49,175 nucleotides of DNA, taken from positions 1-49,175 of the forward strand of contig CALXWU010000002.1 in NCBI GenBank assembly GCA_944392505.1, written 5' to 3'. Under the pieces are notes generated by a model. That model had not been told where the DNA came from and ran no database searches. It worked only from the letters and a program-made list of their open reading frames with translations. Of the stretch, positions 200 to 41,586 are shown in pieces. Made by a program: the position numbers and the translations under genes. This DNA comes from an uncultured Clostridia bacterium (GTDB lineage: Bacteria > Bacillota > Clostridia > TANB77 > CAG-508). The stretch's first letter is position 1, and every line of letters starts with the position of its first letter.

Positions 200-3100
200 A
201 TGCACAACTTACTTATAAAAAGATTAGAAGAATCAGAAAAATTTATTGAACTTATGAAGGAAATAAAAATGAAAAAAACCCCGATAAATATATCGGGGTT
301 AGTATTCGTGGGAAAATCTCATATGATTTCAACCATAAGTGAAAATGTTAAAAACCCATTATGTGTAATAACATATAATGAGATTCAGGCTAAAAATTTA
401 GTGAGAGATTTAAGATGCTTTACTGAAAATGTTGAATATTTCGGCAAAAGAGAAATCGCTTCATATGACTATATTTCAGAAAGCAAGGATTTGCCATATG
501 CGAGAATAGATGTTTTAAATAAAATATATAATAAAGAAGCAAAAATAGTTGTTACAACAGTTGAAGCTTTAATGCAGGGCATGATACCAAAAGATGTTTT
601 ATACAAAAATGTAATCACCTTTAGTGTAGGAAATCTGTTTGAAGGTACTGGATTTTCAGGAAAAAAGAATTTAAATAATTTGAAACAGTTGTTGCTTTTA
701 TTAGGATATGAAAGAAATGACATGGTGGAGAATAGAGGGCAATTCAGCATTAGAGGTGGAATAGTAGATATAGGGCTTAGTGAAAAGACTGGTGTTAGAA
801 TTGAATTCTGGGGTGATGAGGTAGATTCTATAAGATATTTTAGTATTGCCTCACAAAGAACAACTGAAATGACCGATAAAATAAGAATATTCCCAGCTCA
901 TGAATATGTATTAGAGTATGAGGTGGAAGACAATATATTACCAGAATATTCTAAAGTAGTTTTACCAGTAGTCAACAATATAAAAGAAAATTGTATACAA
1001 AATGTGAATAAATCAAATATAGAAGCAGATATTGAAGCAATACAAAATGGGGAATTTTTAAGCAAAATAGATAAATATTTTAATGAATTCTATTCTAAAA
1101 AAAGTAGTTTTTTAGAATATTTATCAAGTGATACTTTAATATGCGTGGATGAAAATTTAAAAATTAATCAAAGAATAGAAAACATATTAATAGAGAATAA
1201 TAATTTAATAAAATCCTTAGTAGAAAGATCTAGATTTATCCCAGAGGGAATTGCAAATGTAAGTGATTTTAATAGACAAGAATGGAATAATATATATGAA
1301 GATAAACCAACTATTTATTTAGAAGAAAATAATAGTAGCAATGTAAATAAATTTGAGTTTAATTATAGAGAAATAAACTTTTTCAAAAGCGAATTAGATT
1401 TACTTATAGACGACATAAAAAAATGGCAAAATGAGAAAAAAGAAATTGTAGTTTTAGCAGGAAATAAAGAAAATGCAGAAAGAATAAATAAGCTGTTTGA
1501 GGAGAAAAATATAAATGCAACTAGCAAGGTCTGTCCCCAAAACGACAACTTTGTCGCTTGGGGGACTGTCCCTAAAACGACAATTTTGGTTGGACCTACG
1601 ACGACAACTGGGTTTGAGTGTTATGATTTGAATTTGGTTGTTATTAATATGGCAGAGGCTTTTGAGGGAACGGCTAAAAAGAAGAAAACTAGTAGTACAT
1701 TTAAACAGGGAGAGAAAATTGTTTTTGCAGATTTAAAACCAGGCGATTTTGTGGTACATAGAACTCATGGTATAGGTGAATTTGTTGGAGTAAATACTAT
1801 AGAGGCAGATGGAGTTACAAAGGACTATATAAAAATTAAGTATAGAAATGATGATATGCTTTATGTTCCAACCAACAATTTAGACAATGTTAGAAAATAT
1901 ATTGGTGGAGGAGATACTGCTCCAAGGTTAAATAAGCTTGGAAGTAAAGAATGGAGTAACACAAAATCAAAGGTAAAGAATAATTTAAGAGAAGTTGCAA
2001 AAGATTTAATTGAACTATATGCTAAAAGGCAGAAAATTAAAGGATTTGCTTTTTCGAAAGATACTGATTGGCAAAACCAATTTGAAGAAGAGTTTCCATA
2101 TCAAGAAACTGATGATCAATTAAGATGTATAGAAGAAGTAAAAAAAGATATGGAACTTCCTAGACCTATGGATAGGCTATTATGTGGAGATGTTGGTTAT
2201 GGAAAAACAGAAGTGGCTATAAGGGCTGCATTTAAGGCTGTTATGGATCATAAACAAGTGGCATACTTAGTTCCAACCACCGTTTTAGCAAGTCAGCAAT
2301 ATGATAGTTTTAAAAAAAGAATGGAAAATTTTGCGATAAATGTGGAATTATTGAATAGATTTAGGACCCAAAAAGAGCAAAATGAAGTTGTAAAAAAGCT
2401 AAAGCTTGGAGAAACTGATGTTGTAATTGGTACACATAGATTACTTAGTGAAGATGTAGAATTTAAAGATTTAGGGCTTCTTATCATAGATGAAGAGCAT
2501 AGATTTGGAGTTAAGGATAAAGAAAAAATAAAAAAATTAAAAACCAGTGTAGATGTGCTAACAATGACAGCAACACCAATACCTAGAACTCTTCATATGT
2601 CTATCTTAGGAGTACGTGATATGTCTGTAATATATGAGCCACCACAAAATAGACGACCAGTTCAAACTTATGTGTTAGAATATGATACAGAAGTGGTAAA
2701 AGAGGCAATTACGAAAGAGTTAGAAAGAAACGGACAAGTATTTTATTTATACAATAACGTAGAAAATATCGCAAGGAAAGCCTTAGATATAGCTGAATTA
2801 GTTCCAGAGGCAAAAGTGGAATTTGCACATGGAAAAATGACAGGTAGAGAACTTGAAGACATCATGGAACGATTTGTAAATGGAGAAATTAATGTACTTG
2901 TTTGTACTACAATCTTGGAATCTGGAATTGATATACCAAATGCTAATACAATTATTGTAGAAAATGCAGACAGACTAGGCTTAGCACAGCTATATCAAAT
3001 AAGAGGAAGAGTAGGAAGAAGCGATAAGCAGGCATATGCATATATAACATATAAAAGGGATAAACTACTTTCTGAAGTTGCAGATAAAAGGTTAAAGGCA

Positions 3101-3769
3101 ATCCGTGAATTTACCGAATTTGGTTCAGGTTTTAAAATTGCAATGAGAGACTTGGAAATAAGAGGGGCAGGAAGCTTACTTGGAGAAATACAACATGGAC
3201 ATATGGAACAAGTTGGGTATGATACATATTGCAATTTATTAGACCAAGTTGTAAAAGAAATGCAAGGTATAGAAATAGAAGAAGAACCAGAAATTCAGAT
3301 AGATATAAATATCTCAAGTTATATACCAGATAGCTATATAGATAATAGTAGTCAAAAAATTGAGATATATCAAAATATTGCTTTATGTAGAACAGAAGAA
3401 GATATACAAAATGTAATAGATGAAATTATTGATAGATATGGAGTAATGCCAAAAGAATTGGAAAACTTAATAGAGGTAGCTAGAATAAAAGAATTATGTA
3501 GAGAAGCTGGGGTAATTAAAATATCTGAGAAGAAAAATATGCTTACTAATTCAAATAATATAGTTTTCTATTATGATAAAAATAAATATGATCCTGAAAT
3601 AGTTGATAGATTAATAAAGAAATATGGGAATGATGTAAAATTCTCAGCTGGAATAGAACCATATGTAACTTTAAAAATAGGCAATTTAAAGGATGAGAAG
3701 TTGGTAGAAAAAATAAAAGAATTTTTAGGTGAAGGAGAAAAAAATGCAAGTAATTTCAAGCAAGGATAA
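200..3769 (+). CDS. mfd: Transcription-repair coupling factor Mfd
   Basis: 1189 aa. CarD/TRCF RNAP-interacting domain (DFVVHRTHGIGEFVGV), SF2 helicase motifs (GDVGYGKTEVA, IIDEEHRFG, MTATPIPRT, RGRVGRS) and TRCF C-terminal domain. Carries an in-frame repeat copy at 1523-1589. Confidence 0.95.
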   Translation: MHNLLIKRLEESEKFIELMKEIKMKKTPINISGLVFVGKSHMISTISENVKNPLCVITYNEIQAKNLVRDLRCFTENVEYFGKREIASYDYISESKDLPYARIDVLNKIYNKEAKIVVTTVEALMQGMIPKDVLYKNVITFSVGNLFEGTGFSGKKNLNNLKQLLLLLGYERNDMVENRGQFSIRGGIVDIGLSEKTGVRIEFWGDEVDSIRYFSIASQRTTEMTDKIRIFPAHEYVLEYEVEDNILPEYSKVVLPVVNNIKENCIQNVNKSNIEADIEAIQNGEFLSKIDKYFNEFYSKKSSFLEYLSSDTLICVDENLKINQRIENILIENNNLIKSLVERSRFIPEGIANVSDFNRQEWNNIYEDKPTIYLEENNSSNVNKFEFNYREINFFKSELDLLIDDIKKWQNEKKEIVVLAGNKENAERINKLFEEKNINATSKVCPQNDNFVAWGTVPKTTILVGPTTTTGFECYDLNLVVINMAEAFEGTAKKKKTSSTFKQGEKIVFADLKPGDFVVHRTHGIGEFVGVNTIEADGVTKDYIKIKYRNDDMLYVPTNNLDNVRKYIGGGDTAPRLNKLGSKEWSNTKSKVKNNLREVAKDLIELYAKRQKIKGFAFSKDTDWQNQFEEEFPYQETDDQLRCIEEVKKDMELPRPMDRLLCGDVGYGKTEVAIRAAFKAVMDHKQVAYLVPTTVLASQQYDSFKKRMENFAINVELLNRFRTQKEQNEVVKKLKLGETDVVIGTHRLLSEDVEFKDLGLLIIDEEHRFGVKDKEKIKKLKTSVDVLTMTATPIPRTLHMSILGVRDMSVIYEPPQNRRPVQTYVLEYDTEVVKEAITKELERNGQVFYLYNNVENIARKALDIAELVPEAKVEFAHGKMTGRELEDIMERFVNGEINVLVCTTILESGIDIPNANTIIVENADRLGLAQLYQIRGRVGRSDKQAYAYITYKRDKLLSEVADKRLKAIREFTEFGSGFKIAMRDLEIRGAGSLLGEIQHGHMEQVGYDTYCNLLDQVVKEMQGIEIEEEPEIQIDINISSYIPDSYIDNSSQKIEIYQNIALCRTEEDIQNVIDEIIDRYGVMPKELENLIEVARIKELCREAGVIKISEKKNMLTNSNNIVFYYDKNKYDPEIVDRLIKKYGNDVKFSAGIEPYVTLKIGNLKDEKLVEKIKEFLGEGEKNASNFKQG
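1523..1589 (+). repeat. Three-arm repeat, type A copy 1, in frame inside mfd
   Basis: AGCAAGGTCTGTCCCCAAAACGACAACTTTGTCGCTTGGGGGACTGTCCCTAAAACGACAATTTTGG aligns along its length with the intergenic copies at 41040 and 48100. It is G+C-rich relative to the flanks and is translated as SKVCPQNDNFVAWGTVPKTTIL. Confidence 0.75.
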
Positions 3770-7326: not shown

Positions 7327-8370
7327 ATGAAAGAAAGAGTATTATTAGGAATGAGTGGCGGAGTAGATAGTTCTGTTTCAGCTGTATTACTTCAAAAGCA
7401 AGGCTATGAAGTAATTGGCTTAACTATGAAATTATGGGAGGAAGATGATAGAGCTGTTGTAGATGCAAAAAATGTATGCAAAAAATTGGGAATAGAACAT
7501 TATGTAGTTGATCTACAAAAGGAATTTAAAGAAAAAGTTGTAGAAAATTTTATATGTACATATATGTGTGGCAAGACTCCAAATCCATGTGTTGAATGTA
7601 ATAAATTTATAAAGTTCGGAGAATTCTATAATCTGGCTAGAAAATATAGTTGTAAATATATTGCAACTGGTCATTATGCAAAAATTGTTTTTTCTCAAGA
7701 ATATAATCAATATATATTATGCAAATCAAATGCAAAATTAAAAGATCAAACCTACTTCTTGTATGGTATAAATAGAAAAATATTGCCATATATATTATTT
7801 CCTCTATCTGATTTTGAAGATAAAGATGAGATTAGAGATATTGCATTAGAGGTAGGATTAGAAGTTGCTAAAAAGAAAGATAGTCAAGAAATATGTTTTG
7901 TACAAAATGATGATTATATAGAATTTTTACAACAACATGGAGATAACCAATTCAACCAAAAGCAAGGAAACATAGTATTAAAAAATGGAGAAATACTTGG
8001 CGGACATTTAGGAATAATAAATTACACAATTGGACAAAGAAAAGGTCTTGGCATTTCATATAAAGAACCACTTTATGTAATAAAATTAAATAGGGAGACA
8101 AATGAGGTCGTCGTAGGTCCAGAAGAAGAATTATATAGCAAAACTCTAAAAGCAAATGAACTGAATTTCTTATTGAATATGAATTTAGAAAAAGAAATAG
8201 AAATTGAGGCTAAAGTAAGATATAGAGCTAAACCTGCAAAAGCCATTTTGCGTTTGGAAAATGATATTGCAACAATAGAATTCGCCGAAAAGCAAAGAGC
8301 AATAACACCAGGTCAATCTGTCGTATTTTATTTAAATGACATTGTACTAGGTGGAGGAAAAATAATCTGA
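7327..8370 (+). CDS. mnmA: tRNA 2-thiouridine(34) synthase MnmA
   Basis: PP-loop LLGMSGGVDSSVSA, catalytic Cys context (PNPCVECNKFIKF), 347 aa. RBS GGAGGAAG. Confidence 0.92.
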   Translation: MKERVLLGMSGGVDSSVSAVLLQKQGYEVIGLTMKLWEEDDRAVVDAKNVCKKLGIEHYVVDLQKEFKEKVVENFICTYMCGKTPNPCVECNKFIKFGEFYNLARKYSCKYIATGHYAKIVFSQEYNQYILCKSNAKLKDQTYFLYGINRKILPYILFPLSDFEDKDEIRDIALEVGLEVAKKKDSQEICFVQNDDYIEFLQQHGDNQFNQKQGNIVLKNGEILGGHLGIINYTIGQRKGLGISYKEPLYVIKLNRETNEVVVGPEEELYSKTLKANELNFLLNMNLEKEIEIEAKVRYRAKPAKAILRLENDIATIEFAEKQRAITPGQSVVFYLNDIVLGGGKII

Positions 8371-13078: not shown

Positions 13079-13802
13079 ATGGTTTTTGCTAAATCAGATA
13101 TAGGAAAAGCAAGAGAAACAAATCAAGATTATTACTATATCTCCGAAAACAATGAATCACCACAAGTATATATTTTAGCAGATGGAATGGGACGGATATA
13201 AAGGTGGAGAAGTGGCAAGCAAACTTGCTGTTGAATCAGCTAGAAATTACATAAAGAACAATTTTAGTAATAATTTTACAGAAAAAGAAGAAATATTAAA
13301 ACTAGTAGCAAATGCTATCGAATATGCTAATATGGTTGTATATGAAAAATCAAAAGAAGTACAAGAATTAGAAGGAATGGGTACTACTTTAGAAGTTTGT
13401 TTAATATATAATAATAAGGCATATATAGGACATGTAGGAGATAGCAGAATATATAGAATTCGAAAAGAAGTTATTAGAAAACTTACAAAAGACCATAGTT
13501 ATGTGCAACAATTGGTAGAAGATAAAAAAATTACAAGAGAAGAAGCAAAAACACATCCAAAGAAAAACATGCTAACAAAAGCGCTTGGATGCACGCCATA
13601 TGTTGAACCTGACTTAAGAGCAAGAAATTTCGAAAAAGGCGATATATTTATCATGTGTTCTGATGGCTTAACTAATATGGTAGAAGAAAAAAGAATATAT
13701 GAACTAGTTAAAGAAGATTTAAATACAGCAGTAGACAAACTAATAAATGAGGCAAATATGGCAGGAGGCTATGACAATATTACTGTCATTATTATAAAAT
13801 AG
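13079..13802 (+). pseudogene. stp: PP2C Ser/Thr phosphatase (Stp/PrpC) with the frame broken by 1 extra nt at about 13193
   Basis: 13079-13201 encodes MVFAKSDIGKARETNQDYYYISENNESPQVYILADGMGR*. The +1 frame continues GYKGGEVASKL...GGYDNITVIII. Removing C13193 restores DGMGGYKGGEVAS. Confidence 0.85.
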
Positions 13803-22414: not shown

Positions 22415-24169
22415 ATGAAGGCAATAGAGATAAGAAATAAATATTTAAACTTTTTTAAGAATCATGGACATGCTGTAATACCAAGTGCACCGCTAATACC
22501 AGAAAATGATCCATCCGTATTATTTACTACAGCTGGTATGCAACCATTAGTACCATATTTATTAGGTGAAAAACATCCAGAAGGAAAAAGACTTACAGAT
22601 TATCAAAAATGCTTACGTACTAATGATATAGATGAAGTTGGAGATAATAGACATTTAACATATTTTGAAATGCTTGGGAACTGGTCATTGGGCGATTATT
22701 TTAAAGAAGAATCTGTAGCAATGAGTTTTGAATTCTTAACAAAAGAATTAGGAATTCCAGTAGAAAAGTTATCAGTTACATGTTTTGCAGGAGATGAAGA
22801 TGCTCCAAGAGACACTATAACAGCTGAGTGCTGGAAAAAAGCAGGAATACCAGAAGACAGAATATATTATTATGGAAAAGATGACAATTGGTGGATAGCA
22901 GGGGAAGAAGGACCATGTGGCCCAGATACAGAAATGTTCTATGATACTGGCAAACCAGCGTGTGGCCCGGCTTGTGGACCATCTTGTGATTGTGGCAAAT
23001 ATGTCGAAATCTGGAACAATGTATTTATGGAATACTATAAATCAAAAGATGGAATATATACAAAATTAAAACAACGTAATGTGGATACAGGCTTAGGACT
23101 AGAAAGAATGACAATGCTTTTACAAGGTAAAAGTTCACCATTTGATACAGAATTATTCTCTCCAGTAATGGATAAATTAAAAGAACTTGCAAAAATAGAT
23201 AGTATAGAGAGTAGAAGAATAGTTGCAGAACATTTACGTGCAAGTATGATGATAATTTCAGATGGGGGCAGGCCTTCTAATATAGATAGAGGATATGTTC
23301 TAAGAAAACTAATAAGAAGAATGGCAAGACACCTAAACAAAATGCAAGTAAACCTAGAGGAATTAGGCAATTTAATTGATTTGAATATTCAAACTTTAAG
23401 TGAAATGTATCCAGAACTTGAAAAAAATAGAGAGATAATAAAACAGGTAATCATAGAAGAAAAAGATAAGTTCATGAAAACTTTAGCCCATGGAGAAAAA
23501 GAATTTGAAAAAGCAATAAATAGGGCAAAAGTTGAGAATAAAAATATTATTGATGGACAAACTATATTTAAGCTTTATGAGACGTACGGATTTCCGCCAG
23601 AAATTACTGCTGATTTAGCTAGAGAACAAGGATTTGAAATAGACAATTCAGAATTTGAAAAATTATTTAAAGAGCATCAAGAAAAATCAAGAATGGGTAG
23701 TGAACAAAAATTTAAAGGTGGACTAGCAGAACAGAATGAAAAAACAATAGCATATCACACAGCAACACATTTACTTCATAAGGCATTACAAATTGTTCTA
23801 GGAGAGCATGCAACACAAAAAGGTTCAAACATAACCACAGAAAGATTAAGATTCGACTTTTCACATCCCGAAAAAATGACAAAAGAACAATTACAAAAAG
23901 TAGAAGATATAGTAAATAAACAAATAAAAAGAGACTTACCTGTAGCTTATGAAGAAATGACTTTAGAAGCAGCAAAAAAATCAGGAGCAATGGGATTGTT
24001 TGAAAGCAAATATGGAGAAAAAGTAAAAGTATACACAATAGGAGACTTTAGTAAAGAAATTTGCGGAGGCCCTCATGTAACACATACTGGAGAACTTGGG
24101 CATTTCAAAATACTAAAGGAAGAATCAAGTTCAGCAGGAGTAAGAAGAATTAAAGCAATTTTGGAATAA
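22415..24169 (+). CDS. alaS: Alanine--tRNA ligase, short form (catalytic, tRNA-recognition and editing domains; no C-Ala domain)
   Basis: FTTAGMQ, HLTYFEMLGNWSLGDYFK, VDTGLGLER, editing HTATHLLH and CGGPHV. Ends 3 residues after GVRRIKAI. Second ATG (22415) preferred because of RBS spacing. Confidence 0.85.
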   Translation: MKAIEIRNKYLNFFKNHGHAVIPSAPLIPENDPSVLFTTAGMQPLVPYLLGEKHPEGKRLTDYQKCLRTNDIDEVGDNRHLTYFEMLGNWSLGDYFKEESVAMSFEFLTKELGIPVEKLSVTCFAGDEDAPRDTITAECWKKAGIPEDRIYYYGKDDNWWIAGEEGPCGPDTEMFYDTGKPACGPACGPSCDCGKYVEIWNNVFMEYYKSKDGIYTKLKQRNVDTGLGLERMTMLLQGKSSPFDTELFSPVMDKLKELAKIDSIESRRIVAEHLRASMMIISDGGRPSNIDRGYVLRKLIRRMARHLNKMQVNLEELGNLIDLNIQTLSEMYPELEKNREIIKQVIIEEKDKFMKTLAHGEKEFEKAINRAKVENKNIIDGQTIFKLYETYGFPPEITADLAREQGFEIDNSEFEKLFKEHQEKSRMGSEQKFKGGLAEQNEKTIAYHTATHLLHKALQIVLGEHATQKGSNITTERLRFDFSHPEKMTKEQLQKVEDIVNKQIKRDLPVAYEEMTLEAAKKSGAMGLFESKYGEKVKVYTIGDFSKEICGGPHVTHTGELGHFKILKEESSSAGVRRIKAILE

Positions 24170-24171
24170 TT

Positions 24172-24230
24172 GGGACAGGTGTTTTTGTGACAAAAGTGGT
24201 AAAAAGGAACAGGTGCAAAAACGACAAATT
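24172..24230 (+). repeat. Repeat type B copy 1 (GGGACAGGTGTTTTTGTGACAAAAGTGGTAA plus a degenerate second unit)
   Basis: The first 31 nt are identical to 29850-29880. A second unit GGAACAGGTGCAAAAACGACAAA starts 34 nt later. Begins 2 nt after the alaS stop. Confidence 0.75.
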
Positions 24231-29187: not shown

Positions 29188-29847
29188 ATGAATATTAAAA
29201 TTGAAAAAAATAAAATAAAAACCATTAAATTTGGAGATGATAATTATCCAGAAAAATTAAAAAATATATATTGGAAGCCACAAGATTTATATTTAATAGG
29301 AAATGAAGAATTACTTAACTGCAAATCAATAGCCATAATTGGGTGCAGGGACTGCACAGATTATGGAAAAAAGAATTCATATAAATTTGGGTATGAACTT
29401 GCAAGAAAAGGAATATGCGTTATAAGTGGATTGGCAAGAGGTATAGATACTTTTGCACATATTGGAGCATTAAAAGCCAAAGGTAAAACCCTAGCAGTAC
29501 TTGGATGCGGACTAGACATTGTGTATCCTCCAGAAAATTTAAACTTGTATCAAGAAATTTTAAAAAACGATGGAGCAATATTGACAGAATATCCAATTGG
29601 AACTAAACCAGAAAAATACAATTTCCCAGCGAGAAACAGGATAATTAGCGGCCTTTCTGATGGAGTATTGGTTATAGAGGCAAAAAAGAGAAGCGGAACC
29701 TCAATTACTGTAGATTATGCTTTAGAGCAAGGGAAAGATGTGTATGCAATACCAGGAAATATTTCTAGCGTGAGTTCCTATGGAACGAATGAACTTATAA
29801 AAGAAGGTGCAATACCAGTAACAACAGTAGAAGATATCATGATTTAA
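29188..29847 (+). CDS. dprA: DNA-processing protein DprA/Smf, Rossmann-fold core only (219 aa)
   Basis: SGLARGIDTFAH, FPARNRIISGLS, GTSITVDYALEQGKDV. No N-terminal SAM-like or C-terminal winged-helix extension. Confidence 0.85.
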   Translation: MNIKIEKNKIKTIKFGDDNYPEKLKNIYWKPQDLYLIGNEELLNCKSIAIIGCRDCTDYGKKNSYKFGYELARKGICVISGLARGIDTFAHIGALKAKGKTLAVLGCGLDIVYPPENLNLYQEILKNDGAILTEYPIGTKPEKYNFPARNRIISGLSDGVLVIEAKKRSGTSITVDYALEQGKDVYAIPGNISSVSSYGTNELIKEGAIPVTTVEDIMI

Positions 29848-29849
29848 AT

Positions 29850-29912
29850 GGGACAGGTGTTTTTGTGACAAAAGTGGTAATTAAGGACAGGCGTAAAAGT
29901 GACAGAAGAGAC
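29850..29912 (+). repeat. Repeat type B copy 2
   Basis: GGGACAGGTGTTTTTGTGACAAAAGTGGTAA is identical to copy 1. A second unit AGGACAGGCGTAAAAGTGACAGAAG starts 34 nt later. Begins 2 nt after the dprA stop (coordinates +/-1). Confidence 0.75.
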
Positions 29913-37185: not shown

Positions 37186-39888
37186 ATGGAAAAGAAATTA
37201 AATGACAAATTTAATCCTAAAGATTTTGAAGACAGATTATATGAGGAATGGGAGAAAAAGGGCTACTTCAAACCTAATATGGATAAAACGAAAGAAAGCT
37301 ATTGTATTATGATGCCACCACCTAATGTAACAGGTAAACTTCATATGGGACATGCATTAGATGATACAATACAAGATATATTAATTCGTTTTAAAAGGAT
37401 GCAAGGGTATAATACTCTTTGGCTTCCTGGTTCAGATCATGCGGCTATTTCTACTGAAATGAAGGTAGTAGAGAAATTAAAAAAAGAAGGAAAAACAAAA
37501 CAAGATTTAGGAAGAGAAAAGTTCTTAGAAGAAGCTTGGGAGTGGACAAGGATATATGGAGGAACAATTCAAGAACAACAAAAGAAATTGGGATGTTCTT
37601 GTGATTGGGACAGAAGAAGATTTACTCTTGATGAAGGCTTATCTGATGCTGTTTTAGAACAATTTGTAGATTTATATAATAAAGGTTTAATTTACAAGGG
37701 AACAAGAATGATTAACTATTGCCCAAGTTGTAAAACCTCTATTTCTGATGCAGAAGTAGAGTATAAAGAGGAAGAAACGCATTTGTGGTATATAAGGTAT
37801 AAAATAACTGGCACAGAGGATAGATATATCACTGTTGCAACAACAAGACCAGAGACAATGTTAGGAGATACAGCAGTTGCAGTAAGCCCAACAGATGAAA
37901 GATATGAAGATTTAATAGGAAAAACTTGTATACTTCCAATTATGAATAAAGAAATACCAATTATTGCAGATGAATTTGTAGAAAAAGAATTTGGAACAGG
38001 TGCAGTAAAAATAACTCCAGCACATGATATGAATGATTATCAATCAGGGCTAAGGCATAATCTTGAAATCATTTCAGTTTTTGATGATGACAATAGAATG
38101 GGAGATCTAGTTCCTAAGTATAAAGGAATGGATTTGATGACTGCAAGGAAGGCAATTGTAGAGGATTTAAAAGTAATTGGAGCATTAGTAAAGACAGAGG
38201 ATTATGTTCACAATGTTGCAAAGTGTGAGAGGTGTAAAAATACAATTGAGCCAAAAGTTTCTGAGCAATGGTTTGTTGCAATGAAAGATTTAGCAAAAGC
38301 AGCAGCAGATTCTGTAAGAAATGGAGAAGTAAGGTTTATCCCTAAAAAATATGAAAAACAATATTTTAATTGGTTAGATAATATACAAGATTGGTGTATT
38401 TCAAGGCAATTATGGTGGGGACACAGGATTCCAGCATATTATTGTGAGAAATGTGGACATATAAATGTTGCGAAAAGTATGCCTGAAAAATGTGAAAAAT
38501 GCGGAAGTACACATTTGCATCAAGATGAAGATACATTAGACACTTGGTTTAGTAGTGCCTTGTGGCCATTTTCAACACTTGGCTGGCCAAATACAGAAGC
38601 AGAAGATTACAAAACTTTTTACCCAACAAATGTACTAGTAACTGGTTTTGATATTATTACTTTCTGGGTATCAAGAATGATGTCACAAGGAATAGAACTT
38701 ACAGGAAAAGCACCATTTAAAGATGTATTAATTCATGGCATGGTTCGTGATAGCCAAGGTAGGAAAATGTCTAAAACCTTAGGAAATGGAATTGATCCTA
38801 TAGAGATTATAGATGAGTACGGCGCTGATAGCTTAAGATTTGCAGTAATTTCAGGTACAACAATGGGAAATGATATTAGATATATGCCAGAGAAACTAGA
38901 GCAAGCTTCAAATTTTGCTAATAAAATATGGAATGCAGCTAAGTTTATATTAATGAACACTCCTGAAGAAGAAAAAGTAAAAGAATTTGAAAAAGCTTTA
39001 GAGTGTGAGGATAAATATAATTCGGATGCGCTAATGATTGAAGATAAATGGATTTTAAATAAGCTAGATAGATTAATAGCAGATGTAACTAGAAACTTAG
39101 AAAATTACGATTTGGGTGTAGCATTAGATAAAATATATAGTTTTATTTGGAATGAATTTTGTGACTGGTATATAGAAATGTGTAAATCACGTATATATAG
39201 CAATAATGAAGAAACTAAGATTGTAGTAAGTGGAATGTTGAATTATGTATTTGGCTCATCTTTAAGATTATTACATCCATTTATGCCATTTGTGACATCA
39301 GAAATATATTCAAAACTAATTTGTTCTGGAACAGAAGATTTAATAGTAGCAGAGTGGCCAACTATAAGAGATGAATTTGCATTTGACCAGGAAGAAGAGG
39401 CAATGGAAAAAATAAAAGAACTTATTGTAGGAATTAGAAATGTTAGAAGTACGAAGAATATACATCCAAGCAAAAAATCAGAGCTAGTTATAATAAGTTC
39501 TAAGTATAAAAAAGAGTTAGAAAATGCACAAGATATTTTGCTAAAGTTAGGATTTGCCGATAGAATAGAAGTATTTGAAAGCCGAGAAGGATTAGATAAA
39601 AATGAAGAAACAAAGGAAAAAGTTGACAATGCTATGTCTATAATTTTAAGTGACATAGAAGCAGATATTCCATTAAAAGGATTAGTAGACCTTGAAGAGG
39701 AGAAAAACAAATTAAAAAGTGAAATTACAAGACTTGAGGGAGAAGTAGCAAGAGGAGAAAAGATGTTGTCAAATCCAGGTTTTGTGAATAAAGCACCAGC
39801 AGCAAAAGTAAATGAAGAAAAAGAAAAACTAGCCCAATATAAAGAGATGCTAGAATCTGCAAAAGATAGATTAGAAAAATTAAAATAA
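37186..39888 (+). CDS. valS: Valine--tRNA ligase
   Basis: HIGH (PNVTGKLHMGHAL), KMSKS (GRKMSKTLGN), CP1 editing domain, C-terminal coiled coil. 900 aa. Confidence 0.95.
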   Translation: MEKKLNDKFNPKDFEDRLYEEWEKKGYFKPNMDKTKESYCIMMPPPNVTGKLHMGHALDDTIQDILIRFKRMQGYNTLWLPGSDHAAISTEMKVVEKLKKEGKTKQDLGREKFLEEAWEWTRIYGGTIQEQQKKLGCSCDWDRRRFTLDEGLSDAVLEQFVDLYNKGLIYKGTRMINYCPSCKTSISDAEVEYKEEETHLWYIRYKITGTEDRYITVATTRPETMLGDTAVAVSPTDERYEDLIGKTCILPIMNKEIPIIADEFVEKEFGTGAVKITPAHDMNDYQSGLRHNLEIISVFDDDNRMGDLVPKYKGMDLMTARKAIVEDLKVIGALVKTEDYVHNVAKCERCKNTIEPKVSEQWFVAMKDLAKAAADSVRNGEVRFIPKKYEKQYFNWLDNIQDWCISRQLWWGHRIPAYYCEKCGHINVAKSMPEKCEKCGSTHLHQDEDTLDTWFSSALWPFSTLGWPNTEAEDYKTFYPTNVLVTGFDIITFWVSRMMSQGIELTGKAPFKDVLIHGMVRDSQGRKMSKTLGNGIDPIEIIDEYGADSLRFAVISGTTMGNDIRYMPEKLEQASNFANKIWNAAKFILMNTPEEEKVKEFEKALECEDKYNSDALMIEDKWILNKLDRLIADVTRNLENYDLGVALDKIYSFIWNEFCDWYIEMCKSRIYSNNEETKIVVSGMLNYVFGSSLRLLHPFMPFVTSEIYSKLICSGTEDLIVAEWPTIRDEFAFDQEEEAMEKIKELIVGIRNVRSTKNIHPSKKSELVIISSKYKKELENAQDILLKLGFADRIEVFESREGLDKNEETKEKVDNAMSIILSDIEADIPLKGLVDLEEEKNKLKSEITRLEGEVARGEKMLSNPGFVNKAPAAKVNEEKEKLAQYKEMLESAKDRLEKLK

Positions 39889-39895
39889 AATTCTG

Positions 39896-39932
39896 GAACA
39901 AGGGGACACACAATTTGTTTCAAATTTGGGAC
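39896..39932 (+). repeat. Left inverted repeat of the GGGACAC family
   Basis: GAACAAGGGGACACACAATTTGTTTCAAATTTGGGAC matches the reverse complement of 40545-40581 at 31 of 37 positions, with a 16-nt perfect core. Confidence 0.7.
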
Positions 39933-39935
39933 AGA

Positions 39936-39974
39936 GGGACAGACATATAAAATATTCTATGTCTGTCCCTTTTG
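39936..39974. terminator. Bidirectional terminator between valS and the convergent 142-aa gene
   Basis: GGGACAGACATA / TATGTCTGTCCC 12-bp stem followed by TTTTG. The 3' arm can alternatively pair with 39897-39909. Confidence 0.75.
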
Positions 39975-39991
39975 TTCAAGCTACTGCAAAC

Positions 39992-40420
39992 CTACAAATA
40001 TTTTTTCAATTTCTCAATTGTATTTTCTTGGAATTGTATAAAATCATCTAAGATTTTTTGAGTTGTTTGATTTGCGTCAGGGTTCTGATTTTTTAATTTA
40101 ACCCCTTCAATTATTCCCATATTAGTTCCTTTTATCATCATTTCTGCAATATGAGAATTACTTTTATCAGCAATAGTGCTTATTTGAATATCCATATATC
40201 CCATGAATTTTTGCATAGGTGGAAGTTCGGCAGGAAGATCATTAAAATTTTGTAATTCAGTATTTACTCTATTCAAAATATCATTATATTGATTGTATTG
40301 ATAAATTAAATCATTTTTAAAATTATTATCTCCGACCTTTTCAGAAATGGTGGAAATAGAATCCATACCCATTTTTAATCCTTTGTTTACAGTATTTAAA
40401 ATATATTTCTCATTTCCCAT
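39992..40420 (-). CDS. Hypothetical helical protein (142 aa)
   Basis: ATG at 40420 with AAGGAA upstream. Predicted all-helical with a PAELPP linker. No family confidently recognised. Flanked by inverted repeats. Confidence 0.55.
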   Translation of the reverse strand: MGNEKYILNTVNKGLKMGMDSISTISEKVGDNNFKNDLIYQYNQYNDILNRVNTELQNFNDLPAELPPMQKFMGYMDIQISTIADKSNSHIAEMMIKGTNMGIIEGVKLKNQNPDANQTTQKILDDFIQFQENTIEKLKKYL

Positions 40421-40544
40421 CAAAATCACGTTCCTTATTTATATTTAGGTTTTATGGATTTACCTATAAACCAATTGTATTTATAAAATTATTTTACCCA
40501 CAATCAGAAAATTTATTACAATTACTTTTTATGTATGTCCATAT

Positions 40545-40688: not shown

Positions 40689-41012
40689 ATGTACTTGAAT
40701 ATCAATTTTATAAAACAGGACAAGCAATTAATTGTGGAAATTACTGAAGAAATAGACCACCATGTTGCAGAAAAGATAAGGAGGAAAGTAGATGATGAAA
40801 TTACAAGATATATGCCTAGAAAAACTATATTTGATTTCAGTAGGGTTACTTTTATGGATAGTGCAGGAATAGGAATGCTTATTGGAAGATATAAGATGAT
40901 GAGACTTATTGGAGGAAGTTTGGAGATTGTGAATGCAGGAAGTACCGTCAGTAGGATATTGGAAATGAGTGGAATAAATAAAATTATACCTATTGAAAAA
41001 ATGGCTATGTAG
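40689..41012 (+). CDS. spoIIAA: Anti-sigma-F factor antagonist SpoIIAA (STAS)
   Basis: STAS fold, DHH motif and phosphorylatable Ser context FMDSAGIG. First gene of the spoIIAA-AB-sigF triad. TTG at 40695 is an alternative start with better RBS spacing. Confidence 0.88.
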   Translation: MYLNINFIKQDKQLIVEITEEIDHHVAEKIRRKVDDEITRYMPRKTIFDFSRVTFMDSAGIGMLIGRYKMMRLIGGSLEIVNAGSTVSRILEMSGINKIIPIEKMAM

Positions 41013-41039
41013 AGTCAATTAAAAAGTGTCGCAGATAAT

Positions 41040-41098
41040 AGGTCTGTCCCCGAAACGACAAAGTTGTCGTTTTAGGGACTGGCTCCAAAGCGACAAAA
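41040..41098 (+). repeat. Three-arm repeat, type A copy 2, between spoIIAA and spoIIAB
   Basis: AGGTCTGTCCCCGAAACGACAAAGTTGTCGTTTTAGGGACTGGCTCCAAAGCGACAAAAGG. Its 3' end runs into the spoIIAB RBS AAGGAGG. Confidence 0.8.
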
Positions 41099-41112
41099 GG
41101 AGGATTTTTAAA

Positions 41113-41586
41113 ATGTATGATAATGAAATGAAATTAGAGTTTTTGAGCAAATCTAGCAATGAGGCTTTTGCTAGAATTACTATTGCTGCTTTTGCATCAC
41201 AACTTGATCCAACTATAGAGGAACTGGCAGATATTAAAACAGCTGTATCAGAAGCGGTAACCAATTGTATTATTCATGGCTATGAAGATGCGGAGGGGAT
41301 TATTAAAATTAAAGCGAGGTTAATAAAAAATACCATAGAAATAGAAATTTCGGATACTGGTAAAGGTATTGAAAATGTAGAGTTGGCACGTAAACCGTTA
41401 TATACAACTAAAGCAAATTTAGAAAGGTCTGGAATGGGCTTCACGATTATGGAAAGTTTTATGGATGATGTGGAAATTGATTCTGTATTTGGACTTGGAA
41501 CAAAAATAATAATGAAGAAAAAGATAAAAAAGCATTTGGTGGAGCTTAAAGAAGAAGAGTTTGCTGGATTAGGGGGAGTGGGCTAA
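41113..41586 (+). CDS. spoIIAB: Anti-sigma-F factor / Ser kinase SpoIIAB
   Basis: [34 protein letters not shown] aligns with the B. subtilis SpoIIAB N-terminus. HATPase motifs [24 protein letters not shown]. The track's 41026 start would translate the repeat. Confidence 0.9.

Follow-up and report, generated by a model that had tools for sequence, protein, structure and literature searches.

The mfd gene in a 49,175-nucleotide stretch of DNA from an uncultured Clostridia bacterium, a low-GC spore-former (contig CALXWU010000002.1; the whole stretch is hereafter called the window), raises the question of how a G+C-rich segment with counterparts between genes came to lie in frame within the coding sequence of the transcription-repair coupling factor, Mfd. 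A first-pass annotation had proposed that nucleotides 1523–1612 hold an embedded copy of an intergenic repeat element, and our analysis confirms the observation and supports this view, each of the three checks proposed there (orthologues, further copies, structure) having come out in its favour. The element in mfd is homologous to the intergenic copies of the window. We consider it likely that positions 1527–1583 represent a non-coding, dispersed palindromic repeat, similar to the repetitive extragenic palindromes (REP) and bacterial interspersed mosaic elements (BIME), which was copied into mfd where the gene encodes a permissive loop, and which is read through in translation and tolerated there, the loop being dispensable. 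The copy, with a decayed extra arm that may reach about position 1607, would provide 19 extra or replacement residues (K443–T461), and it would persist because it is frame-neutral, stop-free and structurally harmless.

The host gene shows all features of an Mfd/TRCF protein. The Pfam domains UvrB_inter, CarD_TRCF_RID, DEAD, Helicase_C and TRCF all lie in one open reading frame (ORF), which contains the UvrB-homology module, the RNA polymerase (RNAP)-interacting domain, the superfamily 2 translocase motifs and the TRCF C-terminal domain; phmmer comparison with the Mfd chains 2eyq and 6x26 of the PDB gave an E-value of 8e-213. Nucleotides 1523–1612 are agcaaggtctgtccccaaaacgacaactttgtcgcttgggggactgtccctaaaacgacaattttggttggacctacgacgacaactggg, with the translation SKVCPQNDNFVAWGTVPKTTILVGPTTTTG followed by FE, and the ORF reads the element region as ...ATSKVCPQNDNFVAWGTVPKTTILVGPTTTTGFE. 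The frame used in mfd has no stop codon in the copy, and the reading frame is preserved; in all, the copy is stop-free in four of six frames. As the first-pass annotation had remarked, the segment is rich in G+C: the GC content of the element is 49–51% (49% over 1523–1589), compared to 23–31% in the flanks and 29.5% in the window.

The window contains three copies of the repeat, each 57–61 nt in size, and the two outside mfd are both intergenic (Table 1). They form the top direct-repeat family of the window (D1), with 1527–1583 as the reference, 41040–41096 at 82% identity and 48105–48161 at 61% identity without gaps. With gaps, the Mfd copy matches the two intergenic copies at 47/59 and 50/61 positions (∼80–82%), in good agreement with the earlier by-eye estimate of roughly 80% over 1523–1589; within the window, blastn-short gave E-values of 2e-7 and 3e-6. 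Each copy is composed of three 16-nt arms with the consensus GTCCCCAAAACGACAA, arranged in +/−/+ orientation. The hairpin fold of the Mfd copy RNA has an energy of −23 kcal/mol (z = −3.1), and that of the 41040 copy −25.2 kcal/mol (z = −3.5). Like REP and BIME sequences, four of the five folded sequences form stable hairpins, with minimum free energies of −23 to −27 kcal/mol and z-scores of −3.1 to −3.8; the fifth, the decayed 48100 copy, has a z-score of −0.5.

Given short repeats and metagenomic data, one might attribute the similarity to chance, to low complexity or to a chimeric assembly. At three or fewer mismatches, the 16-nt arm gave eight matches, all within the three copies, against 0.14 expected from dinucleotide shuffles, and none of 100 shuffles reached eight; the blastn E-values are as low as 2e-7, and the sequence is GC-rich rather than simple. 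The identical protein was found in at least 12 clusters and on dozens of contigs from independent assemblies (P0004, for example, on 28 contigs), and one relative, L121, whose mfd is 94% identical, has the insert with four substitutions. The chance of any of these explanations being right is close to nil.

Table 1. Features of the window that belong to the repeat family or carry it
Feature	Position	Strand	Description
mfd (transcription-repair coupling factor)	200..3769	+	Intact ORF of 1189 aa with the repeat within (ORF list and translation)
In-frame copy of the dispersed palindromic repeat	1527..1583	+	57 nt; encodes K443–T461, KVCPQNDNFVAWGTVPKTT
Arm 1, GTCCCCAAAACGACAA	1533..1548	+	0 mismatches
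Arm 2, inverted, pairs with arm 1	1551..1566	-	2 mismatches
Arm 3, direct	1568..1583	+	1 mismatch; encodes VPKTT, predicted to run into strand 460–464
Probable degenerate fourth arm or older remnant, GGACCTACGACGACAA	1592..1607	+	11/16 to the arm; encodes GPTTTT where the clade usually has GGLSS
Intergenic copy	41040..41097	+	Between STAS (SpoIIAA-like) and HATPase_c_2 (SpoIIAB-like) genes; 3′ arm ends 2 nt before AAGGAGG; ATG at 41113
Intergenic copy	48104..48164	+	Between AddA-like helicase gene and PHP-domain DNA polymerase gene; 3′ arm abuts AAGGAGC; ATG at 48175
Related repeat of another sub-family (family D2)	24170..24228 (or 24139..24226)	-	Directly after stop codon of alanyl-tRNA-synthetase-like ORF
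Second copy of D2 sub-family	29848..29906 (or 29817..29904)	-	Directly after stop codon of DprA-like ORF
Perfect hairpin GGGACAGACATA(N10)TATGTCTGTCCC with extra GGGACAG	39928..39975	.	Carries the family box; between convergent genes valS-like 37186–39888 and ORF 39992–40429; terminator-like

Comparison with orthologues bears on when the segment entered the gene. A whole-protein search gave 120 close homologues of 76–100% identity and 1165 to 1255 amino acids (aa) in length. They differ in length mainly at this site, which directly precedes the conserved ..GGLSSGFE strand; the 118 homologues in which the GFE anchor was found have 44 distinct sequences here, and the segment measures 33–109 aa among the complete ones. 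In distant Mfds (representatives at 50% identity), the stretch from the preceding helix to the strand is generally variable in both respects, length and sequence; the conserved part is the strand (V/I)x(I/V)xxGxLxxGFE. The insert of the window is limited to its own species group (proteins P0001–P0014, 96–100% identity), and the next relatives P0015 (85%), P0016 (82%) and P0018 (81%) are without any box of the repeat at the site. Measured from GNKEN to GFE, the segment of the window counts 53 aa and that of P0015 37 aa, the minimum among complete clade members being 33 aa. The extra residues foreseen by the first-pass annotation are present, their net number over the nearest empty relative being 16 codons and not 20–25. 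In a neighbor-joining tree built from 1124 ungapped columns, the window clade is nested among the box-free P0015, P0016 and P0018. As the insert is absent from the nearest outgroups, the element was probably gained in the window lineage.

Nor is the window an isolated case. Judged from their DNA, many related species carry repeat-derived sequence at the same Mfd site, and at least four sub-families of the repeat superfamily occur there. The elements of the relatives all share the box (A)GRCCTGTCCC and a period of 35–36 nt. Loci L085, L139 and L140 have a two-unit element of ACGACA type that ends ...GTCCCTATAACGACA, directly followed by GGAGGG, and is translated KACPQNDKVVVFRPVPITTGG; L122 has a solo arm only, AGGCCTGTCCCTATTCTGACA, followed by GGAGGA. 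L123 has two units with the arms AAAGATGACA and AAAGTGCCA, and its close relative L124 has three units with the arms AAAGATGA and AAACCCGACA; the unit types in these two are GATGACA, GTGCCA or CCCGACA. L142 carries the TTGGAA type, with arms AAATTGGAA. As one 36-nt unit equals 12 codons, gain or loss of a unit keeps the frame.

Where checked, the Mfd copies of the relatives resemble the intergenic copies of their own genomes. The Mfd copy of L085 is 95% identical to an intergenic copy of its own species and 84% to the Mfd copy of the window; that of L124 is 86% identical to an intergenic copy of its own genome and 71–75% to Mfd copies of other species; and unit 1 of L123 is 83% identical to an intergenic unit of its own genome. 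Loss was observed as well. Between L141 and L085, the flanking mfd DNA is identical at 1189 of 1200 positions, and an 81-nt in-frame difference removes most of the element; because the L141 protein (P0020) is nested within the element-bearing P0019 and P0027 in the neighbor-joining tree, its shorter form points to a secondary in-frame loss within the species. Taken together, these sequence comparisons indicate that the Mfd site is an insertion hot spot at which repeat units are gained, exchanged and lost repeatedly. New copies would reach the site by the action of an enzyme in trans, or else by recombination or gene conversion between dispersed copies and the site, for which arm remnants already present would serve as seeds. 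Fresh insertion and gene conversion seeded by such remnants are inseparable with these sequences.

A related possibility is that one ancient insertion, and no series of independent ones, took place in the ancestor of the clade, and that gene conversion has since kept each copy like the family of its own genome, together with local decay, duplication and deletion. Remnants of boxes or arms (RPVPI.., GTVPI.., TVPI..) adjoin GGLSSGFE in most clade members, including the short forms L122 and L125; they would give homology for gene conversion, and the 12-codon unit makes its gain or loss frame-neutral under this history too. Against it, the site is free of the box in several deep branches (P0105, P0108, P0018, P0016 and P0024), box-free relatives surround the window clade in the tree, and the close relatives L123 and L124 carry wholly different arm types at the same position. 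We regard a single ancient insertion as a minority possibility.

Downstream of arm 3, positions 1592–1607 are probably not native sequence but an earlier arm in decay, and a comparable remnant, CCCATAACTACA, is present at the Mfd site of the relative L119. The segment had been described in the first pass as lying just upstream of a GxLxxGFE strand. It does precede the ..GFE strand; the GxLxx part, however, is replaced by (P)TTTT in this lineage. The otherwise invariant GGLSS of GGLSSGFE is lost in the window sub-clade: the window and L121 have (P)TTTTGFE, and L119 has PITTTGFE. TTT(T) thus stands in place of GGLSS whether the full element is present (window, L121) or not (L119), and the loss of GGLSS is possibly a by-product of repeat turnover at the site. 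Separately, positions 1593–1607 have an exact 15-nt match, GGACCTACGACGACC, at 8107–8121 on the − strand of the window, within the ORF 7327..8370; the blastn E-value is 0.003 in the window and the match may be due to chance.

The direction of copying might also be the reverse, the intergenic repeats being derived from an mfd coding segment that was spread around the genome. The native strand codons do resemble the element to some extent: in L125, ACTGTACCTATTGTAACAGGTGGG matches arm 3 plus GGAGG at 17 of 23 positions. However, the repeat comprises many sub-families that share only the box and are widely intergenic, including in genomes with an element-free mfd (L120), and Mfd genes without the box show nothing like its palindromic architecture of several arms. 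An origin of the family in mfd is highly improbable.

With respect to the protein, the insert is located at the end of what we take to be the poorly conserved domain D3, before the RNAP-interacting domain. phmmer aligned the window Mfd to the Escherichia coli protein over query residues 41–295 and 489–1183 (query 489 corresponds to E. coli 452), leaving D3 around the insert uncovered; the insert is N-terminal to the region from query 489 that aligns to solved Mfd structures. AlphaFold was run on the full-length Mfd and on the D3 segment. Both models are poor (mean pLDDT of 45 and 53), so only the local strand-loop-strand topology was used: both predict a strand at 440–444, a low-pLDDT loop at 445–459 and a strand at 460–464, and in both arm 3 (VPKTT) runs into the strand leading to GFE. 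This weakly supported placement would agree with a surface loop, which the first-pass annotation had proposed to look for.

The sequence of the encoded peptide appears to be under relaxed constraint. Compared with L121 (94% identity), the window shows 93.0% identity in the element and 94.1% in the rest of mfd, and each of the four differences within the element alters an amino acid. Given the stop-free frames, the divergence from L121 and the loss in a near-identical strain of a related species, we infer that the peptide has no role of its own and is a tolerated passenger in a dispensable surface loop. Alternatively, the insert may have been co-opted, either because the peptide tunes Mfd (e.g. 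D3 contacts or autoinhibition) or because the mRNA hairpin of about −23 kcal/mol regulates translation or decay, with selection keeping the repeat. Repeat-derived sequence does persist at the site across many species; arm 3 encodes a strand-like VP(I/K)TT directly before the conserved motif; the hairpin is stable, with a z-score of about −3; and transcribed small repeats can change the fate of an mRNA (PMC3049150). Nevertheless, the peptide is not conserved (44 variants, with 4/4 changes between window and L121 non-synonymous), the number of extra residues ranges from 0 to more than 50, L141 has lost most of the element in spite of its 99% identity to L085, and the arm changes observed are not compensatory. 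We therefore consider co-option quite unlikely. An internal translation start after the SD (Shine-Dalgarno)-like GGAGGG in mfd was also considered and rejected; no in-frame ATG, GTG or TTG is found at 4–12 nt, and the window copy has no GGAGG.

Beyond mfd, the repeat is dispersed and mostly intergenic in related uncultured Clostridium genomes and metagenomes, so that a low-complexity background does not account for the similarity. The loci of the genome collection that carry it are labelled 'uncultured Clostridium sp.' or 'uncultured Clostridia bacterium' and are metagenome-assembled genomes (MAGs) from gut metagenomes. In an arm scan of the 596-Gb collection the pattern proved too short, most of the 118 matches being single chance matches in unrelated high-GC genomes; the informative matches are only those in low-GC 'uncultured Clostridium/Clostridia' MAG loci. 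The family unit, with a period of 35–36 nt, contains the box (A)GGYCTGTCCC, a short A-rich spacer and a half-hairpin such as CGACAA. The superfamily box is CCTGTCCC, and the head AGGYCTGTCCC is present in all copies. Copies are strings of arms in alternating orientation that end with a lone direct arm. After de-duplication, 43 arrays were counted in 461 kb of low-GC related loci, a density that is inflated because many loci were fetched through the repeat itself. Six of the 43 arrays are in-frame copies in Mfd, always at the one site, and no internal copy was found in any other gene in the ∼460 kb sampled.

The arrays show a preferred position. In 17 arrays the last arm lies 0–8 nt upstream of an SD-like motif and start codon (ORF of at least 60 codons) and is co-oriented with the gene, against three reversed (binomial p = 0.003); the SD-adjacent positions are 41040–41112 and 48104–48177 of the window and those in loci L009, L010, L036, L040, L048, L049, L099, L127, L128, L131, L132, L136 and L138. 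The first of these is within the spoIIAA-spoIIAB-sigma operon, in front of the spoIIAB-like gene. Where a copy is reversed, it fills the whole spacer between an upstream stop codon and the SD of the following gene in the operon. In relatives, one such copy borders the 3′ end of mfd, and the last two codons and the stop codon of the gene come from it (...EFLSL*; L139 8986–9045, L140 1272–1330, L122 about 13300–13324), so that mfd is touched by the family at two places. The adjacency to SD motifs could reflect targeting, selection or merely very short operon spacers. That the CCTGTCCC-box repeats are orientation-specifically targeted to GGAGG, or are kept there as modular hairpin cassettes of the 5′ untranslated region, is a tentative and rather unlikely proposal. 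The idea that the element carries its own SD was rejected, since CCTCC is missing beyond the 3′ arm of reversed copies and the gap between arm and SD is variable (0–8 nt). A CRISPR array was rejected as well, because the units abut without spacers and alternate in orientation.

The same junction is seen inside mfd. In relatives, the Mfd copy ends 0–8 nt before GGAGGG, the Gly-Gly codons of GGLSSGFE. As this is also the junction of the family with genuine ribosome-binding sites, targeting to sequences like such a site, or microhomology with an arm-plus-SD sequence, is plausible for the hot spot. Under targeting, the Gly-Gly codons would act as a decoy ribosome-binding site, and a single coding site would be hit repeatedly for that reason. 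As the cause of the hot spot, we regard targeting or microhomology as doubtful.

Several points weigh against a mobile REP/BIME-like repeat that was copied into mfd and is harmlessly translated. First, the window copy is not beside GGAGG, and the idea of an SD mimic needs an older arm remnant here; this copy may have been seeded by the older arm instead. Second, the window Mfd copy is 82% identical to its own intergenic copies and 84–89% to copies in other species; since it is no closer to its own, the own-family argument there rests on the shared GGGACTGTCCC junction. Third, no duplicated flank was found in about 40 copies, the recurring 5′ AGG being no target-site duplication because AGG is part of every internal unit, and neither Y1_Tnp nor any other transposase, including RAYT, is present in the Pfam listings of the Mfd loci or in the 10 window ORFs scanned; we infer mobility only from the dispersed and polymorphic distribution. 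Fourth, the placement in a surface loop is weakly supported by the low-confidence models, and the element might lower Mfd output instead of being translated, read-through being predicted from the ORF. Finally, all relatives are metagenome assemblies. In the flanks of L120 and L121, the PGI, RecG, AspRS and MnmA-like genes are called as multiple short fragments, which suggests long-read frameshift errors, and single-base indels there should not be over-interpreted.

A few further observations concern the window and its relatives. The D2 sub-family listed in Table 1 (GGGACAGGTGTTTTTGTGACAAAAGTGGTAA...) has the same CCTGTCCC box, a different arm and the opposite orientation. A second hypervariable site is located in Mfd at about residue 271 (window position about 1010; alignment columns 298–336), where relatives have 0–45 extra residues, e.g. 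HTLKFNSMLQSKVSQNLENIGLVADKNISSDGK; no obvious repeat box is seen there at the protein level. At the gathering score, Rfam 15 identified only two tRNAs in the whole window; a permissive search of 40990–41130 gave a best sub-threshold match of 20 bits, compared to a gathering score of 94. A scan of IMG/VR with the arm and hairpin gave 0 matches and hence no sign of a phage origin.

The first-pass annotation knew of no such case in Clostridia, and we likewise found no description of this repeat family, or of in-frame repeats in Clostridia, in the open-access literature; nor did we find small bacterial repeats that home to regions of translation initiation described there as a class. The repeat superfamily appears to be previously undescribed, and its place upstream of SD motifs hints at insertion directed by ribosome-binding sites or at an effect on translation or mRNA stability; if true, such targeting would define a class of small repeat with this homing behaviour. 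The relatives also offer a natural series of Mfd variants, in which one D3 loop is lengthened by anything from 0 to more than 50 residues; the series would show how dispensable this part of the protein is. In practice, the repeats can be expected to cause length heterogeneity and artefacts of annotation and assembly in MAGs of this group.

Among known systems, the family is most readily compared with the REP, BIME and REPIN sequences of Proteobacteria. Like them, it consists of short GC-rich imperfect palindromes in alternating orientation, located in short intergenic spacers and operons, with stable hairpins, many sub-families per lineage and no target-site duplication; the clustering is also REP/BIME-like, with +/−/+ arms and arrays of 35–36 nt period (the 43 arrays come from a repeat-enriched sample of 461 kb). 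Different from REP, the copies contain no GTAG or GTGG and so lack the GT[AG]G head (PMC6006769), no RAYT gene is present in the loci read, and the arms are only 16–18 nt. The present repeats also have a strong preference for the position just 5′ of the SD, in co-orientation (17:3), and REPs are classically extragenic. Of two defining REP features, the head is lacking and the RAYT association could be judged from the loci read only, so the family is not filed as REP. Miniature inverted-repeat transposable elements have terminal inverted repeats and a target-site duplication; the present element shows neither, its last arm being direct and not inverted.

In-frame internal insertions of small repeats are established for the Rickettsia palindromic elements (RPE), for the betaproteobacterial repeat element (BRE) of Bordetella and for pneumococcal repeats (PMC3184786, section 15). 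BRE and the pneumococcal BOX, RUP and SPRITE are, like the present family, small interspersed repeats that are reported as fusions within coding sequences or at their 5′ or 3′ termini (PMC3184786, section 15; PMC3049150), and internal fusions to coding sequences have been reported for the pneumococcal repeats (PMC3049150). The reversed copies that give mfd its last codons and stop in L139 and L140 are 3′-end fusions of this kind. BOX and RUP, however, carry terminal inverted repeats and have been proposed to use a transposase encoded by an insertion sequence, a partner not known for the present family; all of these repeats also differ from it in taxa and sequence. The resemblance to RPE noted in the first pass holds for the outcome but not for family membership. 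As in the present case, RPE are short palindromic repeats found between genes and in frame in conserved genes, where they are translated and the extra residues are tolerated (Ogata et al. 2000, via PMC3184786). They are ∼105–146 bp in size, occur in Alphaproteobacteria and enter many genes, whereas here the copies are 57 nt or strings of 35–36-nt units, occur in Clostridia and enter only mfd in ∼460 kb. Length and host separate the two, which also appear unrelated in sequence, and the likeness, with RPE compared by description only, is an analogy of outcome. On the reading we favour, in-frame colonisation of conserved genes by small palindromic repeats would extend from Rickettsia, Bordetella and streptococci to gut Clostridia.

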